A stretch of 64,000 nucleotides of DNA, taken from assembly GCA_934101575.1 (NCBI GenBank), contig CAKORJ010000001.1, positions 1,238 to 65,237 of the forward strand, in the 5' to 3' direction. Position 1 is the first letter of the stretch. Every line of letters starts with the position of its first letter. The translations under genes and the position numbers were made by a program. This DNA is from an uncultured Bacilli bacterium. GTDB lineage: Bacteria > Bacillota_I > Bacilli_A > RF39 > UBA660. This document shows positions 19,846 through 22,930 of this stretch, in pieces. Under the pieces are notes generated by a model. The model was given only the letters and a program-made list of their open reading frames with translations, searched no databases and had not been told where the DNA came from.

Positions 19846-20637
19846 ATGAAGGTAAATAAGGATAATACAGGGTTAATAGTTGTGGTTATTGTTTTAGGGG
19901 TTCTTTTAATTGGATGTATTTGTTATATTTGTTATGATGAATTTGTTAAGAAAGATTTAGAAAATAAGGAACAGGTTATTGAAGAGGAAAAAGAGGATTT
20001 AATTAAGGGTAATACATTTAGTCTTGCTGATGTAAAGTGTGAGGGAGAACTTGATTGTGCTAAGGCTGTTAAACTTGCTCTTAATGATGCAAATCATGAA
20101 ATCAGGTTAATTAAGAGACTTACTGATGATAAGAAAAAGTATACTATTGATGTTTATGTAGATAATATACTTGTTGATACTTTGGATGGGGGAGATTATA
20201 GTGATTTTTGGCAACAAGGAGTTAAACCTGAGGACAATATAAAGAATTTAGATGGATATTTATATGTTATTGATTCAAAGTATTTGGGAGTTGTTTATAG
20301 ATATGAGAGTTCTACTCCATATTGGTATATAAAGTTTTATAATGAGAATAAGCCTGCGGAACAAAAGCCTATTATGTTAATTTCTAAGGCTACTAGTTTA
20401 TCTAGTAAATCAGTTAATGGCGGAAAGGAGCTTAGTTCTTTGGATGCGTTAGAATTTGATGGACATAGTGTTAAATATTGGAATACTTATTGTTCTAAGA
20501 AACAAATAAAAAATGAAAGTTCTCCATCTATTGCACAATATAGTTTAACTTTTGATGGAAGTGAAGTTACTAAGACAGTTGGTACTGTTTTAAATGATGC
20601 GACTATTGGTGGTCAAGGTGGGCCTTGTACTGAATAA
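19846..20637 (+). CDS. Membrane-anchored hypothetical protein, paralogue 1 of a local family
   Basis: N-terminal anchor GLIVVVIVLGVLLIGCICYICYDEFVKKDL is shared in pattern with the two downstream paralogues. Ends …GGQGGPCTE. Confidence 0.45.
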   Translation: MKVNKDNTGLIVVVIVLGVLLIGCICYICYDEFVKKDLENKEQVIEEEKEDLIKGNTFSLADVKCEGELDCAKAVKLALNDANHEIRLIKRLTDDKKKYTIDVYVDNILVDTLDGGDYSDFWQQGVKPEDNIKNLDGYLYVIDSKYLGVVYRYESSTPYWYIKFYNENKPAEQKPIMLISKATSLSSKSVNGGKELSSLDALEFDGHSVKYWNTYCSKKQIKNESSPSIAQYSLTFDGSEVTKTVGTVLNDATIGGQGGPCTE

Positions 20638-20855
20638 AAATAATTGTGGAGGTATATATGGAAAAAAAGAAAAGTAATAAGGGTTTAATAGTTTTGGTTG
20701 TTATTCTTGCTATTTTATTAGTAGGAAGTATAGGGTACATTTGTTATGATAAGTTTATGGTTAAGAATTTACCTAGTGAGGATAAGAAACCTGTTTCAGA
20801 TGTAGCTTCTAGTGATGATTTTTACTTGATAGATAATTTGGTTAAGAATCATTAT
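20615..20855 (+). repeat. Direct repeat copy A (~241 bp, about 97-98% identical to 21865-22105)
   Basis: Spans the 3' end of paralogue 1, the RBS, and the first ~66 codons of paralogue 2. Only 4-5 mismatches against copy B by eye. Confidence 0.8.
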
Positions 20856-21782
20856 CTTAAAGAAATAACTAGTTTAAATGGAATTTATAATGATAAAGTT
20901 TTGATTAAAATTGAAAATGGAAAAGTATATGTTGTAAAAAGTTTAGATAAAGATAGTGAGTATAGTAATAAATATAAAGAGGTTTCAGGGATAGAAGGAA
21001 CTCCTAAATATGTTTATTCTCAGTATCAATTTATAAGTGCAGTTTTTGTTGTTATAACTGAAGAGGGTGATGTATATTCTGCTACTTCTAGTATTTATGA
21101 AAAAACTACATCTAAACCAAAAAAGTTTATTAAATTAAATACGAAAAAGGTAAAATCAATTTATAGTTTTTATACTTATCACCCATATGAAGCATTAACT
21201 ATATATGCAGGATATGAGGATAATACATTTGCTAAGATAAGTCCTTTAAAGGATGCTAATGGTGCTGTAACAAGTTTAAAAATGAGTGATGTTTCTTTTA
21301 AAAAAGAATTTATGTATCCTGATGCAGTAATTGGAGGATGTGATTTAGGAAGTGATGCTCCTGGTGTTTCTAGAGGACTTTACATAACATCAGATAGAAA
21401 ATTATTTAATAAACTAATAGTAGACGAAGAGGGTACAGCTAAGTACGAAGAAATAAAATATAACAATGAATCTTTTAAAGTTAAAGAGGTTTTCTCGGTT
21501 ACAATTTCTAATGATGACCTTGGAAGTCCGAAAACAATTTTATATTATGTAATTGATAATAATAACAATATTTATGAAATAAAACAAAATAGTGATTTAA
21601 AAATAACATCTGTAAAATTACATAAGAATTTGAAAGTTAAATCTTATACTTTTGAAGAAAACTCAAATGAAAACACTGCTTGTCCTAAAAATTTAATTTC
21701 TATTACATATGAAAATAATTCAGTAGAAAAAATTGAAAAGGACATTCATATATCCACTTTATATGATAGATATAATAAATAG
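20658..21782 (+). CDS. Membrane-anchored hypothetical protein, paralogue 2
   Basis: ATG at 20658 with a GGAGG RBS. The first ~66 aa are near identical to paralogue 3, after which the sequence diverges. Confidence 0.5.
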   Translation: MEKKKSNKGLIVLVVILAILLVGSIGYICYDKFMVKNLPSEDKKPVSDVASSDDFYLIDNLVKNHYLKEITSLNGIYNDKVLIKIENGKVYVVKSLDKDSEYSNKYKEVSGIEGTPKYVYSQYQFISAVFVVITEEGDVYSATSSIYEKTTSKPKKFIKLNTKKVKSIYSFYTYHPYEALTIYAGYEDNTFAKISPLKDANGAVTSLKMSDVSFKKEFMYPDAVIGGCDLGSDAPGVSRGLYITSDRKLFNKLIVDEEGTAKYEEIKYNNESFKVKEVFSVTISNDDLGSPKTILYYVIDNNNNIYEIKQNSDLKITSVKLHKNLKVKSYTFEENSNENTACPKNLISITYENNSVEKIEKDIHISTLYDRYNK

Positions 21783-21864
21783 AAGATTAACTTGAATAAT
21801 TGTTATAGCTTTTGTGATTGTATGTGTATGATTTATATTATATAGTTTTTTTACAGGCTATGAG

Positions 21865-22105
21865 AAGGTGGTCCTTGTACTGAATAAAAATAATTGTGGA
21901 GGTATATATGGAAAAAAAGAAAAATAATAAGGGTTTAATAGTTTTGGTTGTTATTCTTGCTATTTTATTAGTAGGAAGTATAGGGTACATTTGTTATGAT
22001 AAGTTTATGGTTAAGAATTTACCTGTTGAGGATAAGAAACCTGTTTCAGATGTAGATTCTAGTGATGATTTTTACTTGATAGATAATTTGGTTAAGAATC
22101 ATTAT
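21865..22105 (+). repeat. Direct repeat copy B
   Basis: Starts with an orphan copy of the paralogue 1 3' end (…GGPCTE, stop) lying in the intergenic region, then the RBS and 5' end of paralogue 3. Confidence 0.8.
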
Positions 22106-22930
22106 ATTAAGAAAATGAGTTCTACTGATAGTGGTTCGATAAAGATAAAAGATGGTAGTGTTTATTATGATAGTACTGGTAATGGAAAGCTTGTTAAAGA
22201 TACTACTATTAAGGAAGAGCCTGTTTCAGTTTATTCTGTAAGGAAAGGAGGACCTGCTGCACCTTTGTCTTTATATGTTTTAACTAAGGATAATAATCTT
22301 TATTATCGTATTCAAGATTCTTTTGATTATGGTGATGGTGAATCTATGCCAAGTAATGTTCATGAATTTGTTAAGATTAATGCTAAGAAAATTGTTAATG
22401 TTTATACGGGTTATTTAGATAAGTTATCTGATAATTTTATTGGTGTTGATTTTGGAGATGGAAACTTGTATATACACTCTGCTGGAGGATTTACTACTAC
22501 TTATAAGGATTATATAGAATATCCGGATTCTCAAGTTAAATATGCGACAGGTGATGGTATTTTGTGGAGAATTAGTAAAGATAAGAAACTATATTCATAT
22601 ATTTCTACTGGAGAAGATTTAGGTGATGGTTATTATAAGGAAGTTACTTATAATAAGAAAGCAGTAGTTATTAAAAATACTTTTAGTGGATATGTAAAAG
22701 ATGATATTGTTAATTTTGTTATTGATAGTGATAATAATTTACTAAGTTTACCATTTGATAATAAAGATAAGACTACTTTATCTTTGTATAATAATTCAAA
22801 AGTTAAAGATGTTAAATATGTGAAGGATAAAGATGAAAATTATAGTGTTTCTGTTACTTTAGAAGATGGAACTAGTATTTATGTTACTAGTGCTGAACTT
22901 TCTTCATTATATTTAAGGAATAATTCATAA
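21908..22930 (+). CDS. Membrane-anchored hypothetical protein, paralogue 3
   Basis: ATG at 21908 with the same RBS. Shares the N-terminal 66 aa with paralogue 2 and has a different C-terminal domain. Confidence 0.5.
   Translation: MEKKKNNKGLIVLVVILAILLVGSIGYICYDKFMVKNLPVEDKKPVSDVDSSDDFYLIDNLVKNHYIKKMSSTDSGSIKIKDGSVYYDSTGNGKLVKDTTIKEEPVSVYSVRKGGPAAPLSLYVLTKDNNLYYRIQDSFDYGDGESMPSNVHEFVKINAKKIVNVYTGYLDKLSDNFIGVDFGDGNLYIHSAGGFTTTYKDYIEYPDSQVKYATGDGILWRISKDKKLYSYISTGEDLGDGYYKEVTYNKKAVVIKNTFSGYVKDDIVNFVIDSDNNLLSLPFDNKDKTTLSLYNNSKVKDVKYVKDKDENYSVSVTLEDGTSIYVTSAELSSLYLRNNS

Follow-up and report, generated by a model that had tools for sequence, protein, structure and literature searches.

What keeps the first part of neighbouring genes almost identical when the sequence beyond it has diverged? 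The question is raised by three consecutive genes (genes 1 to 3, together called the island) at positions 19846-22930 of a 64,000-nucleotide (nt) stretch of contig CAKORJ010000001.1 from an uncultured Bacilli bacterium; the whole of this stretch, which has 27% G+C and a strong G-over-C skew, is called the window hereafter. An earlier note, made from the sequence alone, described the genes as a tandem family of membrane-anchored proteins and proposed recent duplication or gene conversion as the source of a constant anchor with variable ectodomains, with surface variation through homologous recombination as a possible outcome. Comparison of the island with its relatives shows the repeat itself, concerted evolution of the anchor, exchange of an indel between paralogues, structural breakpoints where the anchor ends, and a module whose sequence looks to have come from another species. 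We consider it likely, at a probability of roughly 0.75, that a conserved anchor module is kept by both selection and gene conversion and acts as the crossover site at which ectodomains are swapped.

The repeat spans the boundary between consecutive genes. Its two direct copies of 252 nt are 97% identical and spaced 1250 nt apart, and the 241-nt span first noticed contains five mismatches. Each copy opens with AAGGTGG(G/T)CCTTGTACTGAATAA, which corresponds to the last seven codons plus the stop of gene 1, and runs through the ribosome-binding site (RBS) to about codon 70 of gene 2 or gene 3, where identity collapses; a 29-mer of this sequence has exactly two occurrences in the window and none in 100 shuffles. 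Both likely start codons, ATG 20658 and ATG 21908, have GGAGG 5 nt before them, and independent gene calls on related contigs begin genes 2 and 3 at the equivalent positions, so that the two proteins are taken to be 374 and 340 amino acids (aa) long. The open reading frames (ORFs) and the common N-terminal design were confirmed for all three proteins: a Lys-rich segment, a hydrophobic helix of about 21 residues and then YICYD, with the signal-anchor of gene 1 reading MKVNKDNTGLIVVVIVLGVLLIGCICYICYDE. Homology between genes 2 and 3 extends from end to end (BLASTP E = 8e-59, 38% identity), with about 95% identity in residues 1-70 and about 25% beyond, whereas the similarity of gene 1 to them is confined to its first 43-53 residues (47-49% identity). 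Of the C-terminal domains described earlier as unrelated or diverged, those of genes 2 and 3 are diverged relatives rather than unrelated; gene 1 shares the anchor design alone.

The comparison draws on at least 15 related metagenomic loci, numbered within the range L001-L027 and sorted into three species groups by flank identity. Homologues came from metagenome assemblies only, some of them from Hadza human-gut samples. The window species includes L001, L002, L007, L021-L023 and the right part of L003 (leuS 99.5% identical), the sister species includes L004-L006 (flanks 74-86% identical) and a third species is represented by L014 and L024-L027. Over the first 96 nt of the coding sequence, genes 2 and 3 and a 240-aa allele of the window species are 98-100% identical to one another, and all three to four island genes of each sister-species genome, carrying four unrelated ectodomain families, are 92-100% identical, whereas a comparison of one species with the other over this stretch gives only 67-74% identity and many synonymous differences. 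The gene-2 bodies of the window and its sister-species orthologue, at 87% nt identity, are more alike than their anchors. Within a genome, the anchor copies are alike also at synonymous sites and in the untranslated leader. The anchors thus cluster by genome rather than by orthology, which is a signature of gene conversion and bears out the proposal of a constant anchor maintained on variable ectodomains.

These data also bear on the simplest alternative, a single recent tandem duplication in an otherwise fixed array, with the 5' identity as a residue that has not yet diverged. Genes 2 and 3 are indeed true tandem paralogues with a 1250-nt period, as this would require, but the alternative is scarcely credible given the sharp edge between 97% identity in the 5' 252 nt and about 25% in the bodies, the sorting of anchors by genome and the differences in gene content between strains. 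Moreover, genes 2 and 3 each have a separate sister-species orthologue, so that their duplication is older than the speciation.

Conversion is still under way within the window species, as its strain sequences show. A 3-nt indel adding a Val (GSIVGYICYD) is missing from both copies in the window, whereas L001 and L002 have it in gene 3 alone, L022 in gene 2 alone and L021 in the two genes alike; it is its presence in all four gene-2/gene-3 combinations that points to continuing conversion between the two genes, and single-base variants are likewise shared or swapped between gene-2 and gene-3 copies. The linker that follows the anchor (residues 33-66) is of the gene-3 type in both window copies when set against the sister species, which means that sequence has flowed in both directions, or repeatedly, across the block of homology from tail to linker.

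The array is far from fixed: comparison of strains and species found structural variation, with rearrangements in L007 and in the L005/L006 pair that break at the anchor end. The window and L007 are collinear at 98.4% from position 17000 to 22006 (gene-3 nt 99), just after ...GYICYDKF; the left breakpoint is at 22006/22007, after gene-3 codon 33, and collinearity is back from 22957, within the terminator. In the interval, L007 has a different, 240-aa ectodomain in place of that of gene 3, followed by a 222-aa gene without an anchor. Three contigs of 0.2-1 Mb carry the L007-type allele, whose protein clusters hold 3 to 58 sequences. The third (L014-type) species has the 240+222 module at 90-100% identity, compared with 60-87% in the flanks, and the module therefore looks to have been imported across species. 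L005 and L006, whose flanks are 99.6% identical, are collinear to nt 95 of their first gene, after which L005 has a 233-aa and L006 a 292-aa ectodomain; in L006 there is an additional gene of 370 aa with an anchor at either boundary. If neighbouring genes of an L005-like array recombined through their anchors, the product would be exactly the first gene of L006. Gene content thus varies both between and within species groups, and the strains of the sister species differ by the insertion or deletion of whole genes. Interspecies exchange at the island would also fit the low synonymous divergence (dS) of the ectodomains between species, which is 0.34 for gene 2 and 0.76 for gene 3 compared with 1.2 for leuS and 2.2 for a nucleoside phosphorylase gene. 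The ratio of nonsynonymous to synonymous divergence (dN/dS) in the ectodomains is 0.21-0.25, indicating purifying rather than diversifying selection.

As for recombination-mediated surface variation, the recombination part of that proposal is supported by three independent structural polymorphisms that break at the anchor end, whereas the variation is seen at the level of strains and species and nothing in the sequences indicates programmed switching. High-frequency phase or antigenic variation of the kind known from Mycoplasma vsp/vsa/vlp or Neisseria pilS, based on a dedicated recombinase, on silent cassettes or on tracts prone to strand slippage, would share with the island a constant leader and signal region joined to variable mature parts, and the A7 run at codons 2-4 could be read as a slippage tract. 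We nevertheless regard such switching as highly improbable: each copy has its own RBS, start and intact ORF with no silent cassettes, no recombinase or integrase domain was found among the neighbouring genes scanned, which are housekeeping genes, the repeats are direct only with no long inverted repeats flanking the genes, and the A7 run shows no frameshifting change of length in the sequences seen. This run is present in genes 2 and 3 (20661-20670 and 21911-21920) and in the sister-species genes, and in L014 the region is shorter by one whole codon, in frame.

The anchor also occurs well outside the island. A profile search over 1.84 billion cluster representatives (E<=0.001) gave 943 matches, of which about 45 are full-length relatives and most others cover positions 1-50 only. 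The motif [G]Y[I][C/V]YDK stands at residues 24-27 in 144 of the 183 retrieved proteins, and the 108 long ones among them fall into at least 40 ectodomain clusters. Across this wider family the Cys is exchanged with Val, Ile, Thr or Ala, so that the motif is not a lipobox. In the distant relatives L009, L010 and L012, anchor genes occur at other loci, sometimes as tandem pairs with differing anchors. A literature search for the motif string returned nothing relevant.

That the motif is kept in such pairs as those of L010 argues that selection, and not conversion alone, maintains it. Could the identity then be explained by purifying selection alone, acting strongly on a signal for sorting or anchoring, with neither conversion nor recombination? 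Retention of GYI[C/V]YDK and the Lys-rich N-terminus in at least 40 ectodomain clusters and in distant relatives, and of the motif in L010 paralogues despite their different anchors, is what this alternative predicts. It is very unlikely to be the whole explanation, however, because, within a genome, synonymous sites and the untranslated leader are identical from copy to copy, whereas many synonymous sites differ between the species, because the indel occurs in all combinations across two paralogues, and because the structural breakpoints coincide with the end of the anchor.

We thus favour the reading in which selection and conversion act together and the anchor is the site of exchange. The island would then be a hypervariable chromosomal site encoding N-terminally anchored, outward-facing proteins that share a module of leader, RBS and about 33 codons, with the consensus MEKKKSNKGLI-(hydrophobic, ~16)-GYICYDK. 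Two forces would hold this module constant, namely purifying selection on the motif across a wide clade and recurrent gene conversion between copies within a genome, down to synonymous sites. Since genes that are otherwise unrelated have no other long stretch of identity in common, the module would serve as a crossover site for homologous recombination, by which whole ectodomain-coding units may be deleted, duplicated or replaced, also with DNA of related species; the 252-nt repeat of the window would represent the tract over which genes 2 and 3 currently convert each other. The resulting variation is probably selected, by phage, host or competitors, rather than neutral.

Several points weigh against this reading. 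The sequences compared all come from metagenomes assembled from short reads, a process that can collapse or mis-join repeats, and the variation is seen between strains and species, with no rearrangement observed inside a single population. Conversion misses some copies, since the gene-1 anchor is not homogenised (69% nt identity to genes 2 and 3), and the L010 paralogues, which keep the motif yet differ in nucleotides, indicate that selection alone accounts for part of the constancy. The propeller assignment of the gene-2 ectodomain, discussed below, reflects local Foldseek similarity with poor global superposition (template modelling (TM)-scores of 0.2-0.3), and both surface exposure and any ligand-binding role are putative. 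The L003 variant is a mosaic, possibly chimeric, and is not used as support. Its first ~1 kb (within positions 1-1700) is 99-100% identical to sister-species DNA and the remainder 97-99% to window-species DNA, the two being fused inside gene 2 and followed by a second gene 2, with all joins at family repeats and on one contig only; L003 may be a true interspecies recombinant or an assembly chimera, and its interpretation as a strain with a third gene-2 copy was dropped once sliding identity had revealed the sister-species DNA. The arrangement of the window itself is not an assembly artefact, as it recurs in at least five independent assemblies (L001, L002, L021, L022/L023 and L007).

A much broader possibility is that the GYI[C/V]YDK N-terminus is at once a dedicated, lineage-wide sorting or retention signal, heading at least 40 unrelated ectodomain families and about 900 cluster representatives, and, through its homogenisation at the nucleotide level, a universal docking site by which gut Firmicutes swap ectodomain genes with their own and with other species, giving a natural modular surface display, perhaps a repertoire of immunity proteins, decoys or adhesins in conflicts between bacteria or with phages. 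We regard this extension as speculative and fairly unlikely.

The features of the island and the gene content of its relatives are collected in Table 1.

Table 1. Features of the island in the window and gene content of the corresponding islands in related loci.
Feature or locus	Coordinates in window	Strand	Species group	Description
Promoter/leader region 5' of gene 1	19785-19839	+		78% identical to 21811-21865 (direct repeat D5; upstream-region alignment)
Gene 1	19846-20637	+		263 aa; ORF list
Repeat copy A	20615-20866	+		gene-1 tail 20615-20637, RBS GGAGG 20648-20652, gene-2 codons 1-~70 (anchor + linker)
Gene 2 ORF	20646-21782	+		likely start ATG 20658, giving 20658-21782, 374 aa
Gene 2-gene 3 spacer	21783-21907	+		promoter-like site (21812-21841), gene-1 leader copy, orphan gene-1 tail (21865-21887), RBS
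Repeat copy B	21865-22116	+		second copy, into gene 3
Gene 3 ORF	21896-22930	+		likely start ATG 21908, giving 21908-22930, 340 aa
Terminator-like hairpin, then T run, 3' of gene 3	22940-22962	+		
Window, L001, L002, L021			window species	island genes 263-374/375-340/341 aa
L007			window species	island genes 263-374-240-222 aa
L004			sister species	island genes 292-378-339 aa
L005			sister species	island genes 233-292-377-339 aa + SocA/Panacea pair
L006			sister species	island genes 292-370-376-339 aa + same SocA/Panacea pair as L005
L014, L024-L027			third species	island genes 239/246-222/223 aa

The start of the repeat raises a question of its own, since a second, orphan copy of the gene-1 tail lies in the spacer between genes 2 and 3, as had been noticed from the sequence. 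The tail, which ends in GGPCTE and the stop, is native to gene 1, because in the gene-1 family alignment its Cys (C261) is invariant, as is G256, both in register. Within the spacer, the orphan tail directly follows a 78% copy of the gene-1 promoter/leader (21811-21865), and for this reason the spacer looks like the relic of a deleted gene-1-like copy from which nearly all of the coding sequence has gone. Sister-species leaders carry a related G-rich element, GAAGGTGG, at the equivalent place, even where no gene-1 homologue precedes it; the idea suggested by this element, that an ancestral leader had overwritten the end of gene 1, was rejected on the grounds of the invariant, in-register tail Cys. 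The earlier note proposed a genome-wide search for further cassette copies; within the 64-kb window none was found, and the exact cassette had no match in the JGI metagenomes.

At the protein level, the positive charge N-terminal of the helix, together with the helices in the AlphaFold2 (AF2) models (residues 8-33 in gene 2 and 8-39 in gene 1), fits a signal-anchor with the N-terminus in and the C-terminus out, probably uncleaved, although cleavage after ...SIG is possible. The proteins are probably exposed at the surface. A lipoprotein identity was considered and rejected: genes 2 and 3 read G-Y-I-C where a lipobox would read L-[ASTVI]-[GAS]-C, and the Cys is replaceable in the wider family as described above. 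Gene 1 does have a lipobox-like L-I-G-C at residues 22-25 (window 19909-19920), absent from genes 2 and 3, and its Cys is not kept in gene-1 homologues, which have A, S or L instead.

The ectodomains of genes 2 and 1, two of the three for which structure prediction had been suggested, were modelled, and both are predicted to be all-beta. In gene 2, the anchor (codons 1-33) and a P3-type linker to about codon 66 lead into an ectodomain whose model (predicted local distance difference test (pLDDT) 81, predicted TM-score (pTM) 0.73) has 24 strands in six groups of four. Foldseek searches of PDB and BFVD gave, as best matches, exclusively propellers with six or seven blades (E ~2e-5, TM-score 0.22-0.27), among them fungal fucose lectins, RCC1 and WD40 proteins; we describe the predicted fold as propeller-like, short of an established fold, and such ectodomains may bind ligands. 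The gene-1 model (pLDDT 80) has no significant fold match in PDB, and its family alignment (A3) shows invariant C29, C65, C71, C216 and C261, four of these Cys lying in the ectodomain. Profile searches against PDB sequences found no relative of the island proteins, and scans of all of them against Pfam, NCBIfam, PADLOC and PHROGs gave nothing significant (all E>=0.002); an S1FA match was dismissed as a transmembrane-helix artefact.

The scans matter for a further alternative, in which the array would supply membrane-anchored proteins for immunity to toxins outside the cell or to phages, or decoys for them, diversifying like the immunity islands of type VI and type VII secretion systems (T6SS and T7SS). 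A strain-variable tandem array that evolves by recombination recalls esaG and tsaI (PMC9484751), a T7SSb locus with four WXG100 genes and an EssC-like ATPase with FHA and FtsK domains lies 25-30 kb away in the window, and the sister-species island contains an inserted SocA/Panacea pair that resembles a toxin-antitoxin system. On the other hand, no significant immunity, defence or phage match was obtained in the four databases (best PADLOC E = 0.003, 15 bits; best immunity-related Pfam family Tis1_ImmP, E = 0.1), no toxin gene adjoins the array, and the ectodomains are under ordinary purifying selection. We consider this alternative quite unlikely.

Among the surroundings of the island, the T7SSb-like locus occupies window positions 47945-55901 and consists of four tandem WXG100 genes (47945-48253, 48276-48563, 48636-48929 and 48942-49250), two further genes without an assigned family (156 and 395 aa) and a gene for a 1576-aa FHA + FtsK/SpoIIIE EssC-like ATPase (51171-55901). 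The SocA/Panacea pair, a 160-aa SocA/Panacea-domain gene with an overlapping 142-aa gene, is at 8498-9405 in L005 and 9712-10619 in L006, between the last anchor gene and the 121-aa gene. The flanks of the island are constant, with a divergently transcribed radical-SAM/methyltransferase gene on one side and the gene for the 121-aa membrane protein followed by leuS on the other. Rfam returned one tRNA and nothing else in the window. The anchorless 222-aa gene (L007 8843-9511; L014 6838-7506) has no recognisable family and always occurs together with the anchored 240-aa gene, possibly as its functional partner; its identity between species is about 97%. Between the window species (L007 9992-12040; window 23385-25781) and L014, leuS is 83-85% identical at its ends and 49-70% in mid-gene, a pattern that suggests a mosaic gene; a topoisomerase IV/gyrase A-like gene, 92% identical between these species, is the next conserved gene after leuS, and the 575/597-aa gene that follows leuS (window 25822-27615) has no counterpart in L014. 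The clade looks like one of Gram-positive, partly spore-forming Firmicutes, because L010 has SpoIIGA and a sigma factor and the window has the T7SSb locus and penicillin-binding proteins. The species-representative genome L004 (CAVFIB010000007.1) is labelled 'Bacteroidaceae bacterium', a label that looks wrong in view of the ~28% G+C of the locus, WXG100/EssC in the syntenic window and SpoIIGA in the more distant L010.

Together, these data suggest that unrelated extracellular domains can be swapped, deleted and imported at a fixed chromosomal site of an uncultured, probably human-gut Firmicute. GYI[C/V]YDK would be an uncharacterised N-terminal module marking a large set of probable surface proteins, and could aid prediction of the surface proteome and of strain-variable interaction genes in these organisms.

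Constant 5' ends joined to variable bodies have precedents. The Vsp, Vlp and Vsa proteins of Mycoplasma and the Erp and Mlp proteins of Borrelia form clustered families with a conserved 5' untranslated region and signal sequence and divergent mature parts; these are lipoproteins, many of which contain internal tandem repeats and are switched by dedicated mechanisms, whereas none of these three features was seen here. Polymorphic toxins such as CdiA-CT and Rhs combine a constant N-terminal part with C-terminal modules that are swappable at a short conserved motif, leave orphan modules and acquire foreign ones by recombination; in the island, by contrast, the constant part is only about 33 codons, and no toxin domains or toxin-immunity pairs were recognised.

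Closer parallels are tandem arrays of paralogues. The T7SS immunity arrays of Firmicutes (esaG, tsaI) show recombination-driven evolution (PMC9484751) and, like the island, consist of non-identical tandem paralogues with homologous recombination between copies and variation among strains; they differ in that the island has no sequence relation to them and no adjoining toxin gene, and that it holds several unrelated families joined only by the anchor. In the lpl cluster of Staphylococcus aureus, recombination takes place at a conserved segment within the genes, and what evolves as a unit reaches from the 3' end of one ORF across the spacer into the 5' end of the next (PMC2568036). This cluster, in the nuSa-alpha island (Tsuru & Kobayashi 2008), likewise comprises tandem paralogues of exported proteins that are rearranged between strains at a conserved segment within the ORF, and its unit has exactly the shape of the repeat described here. 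The features of the lpl-type mechanism recur in the island, which has a near-identical segment in each tandem gene, breakpoints in that segment and exchange between paralogues. The lpl segment is central, however, and the genes are homologous DUF576 lipoproteins, a family for which the island proteins gave no Pfam or NCBIfam match above threshold, whereas here the segment is a 5' leader and signal-anchor without a lipobox and the ectodomains exchanged are unrelated. Concerted evolution with homologous recombination in tandem paralogues is already known in other bacteria, and the protein module is uncharacterised; the locus would be a clean natural case of a short signal-anchor serving as a portable recombination junction.

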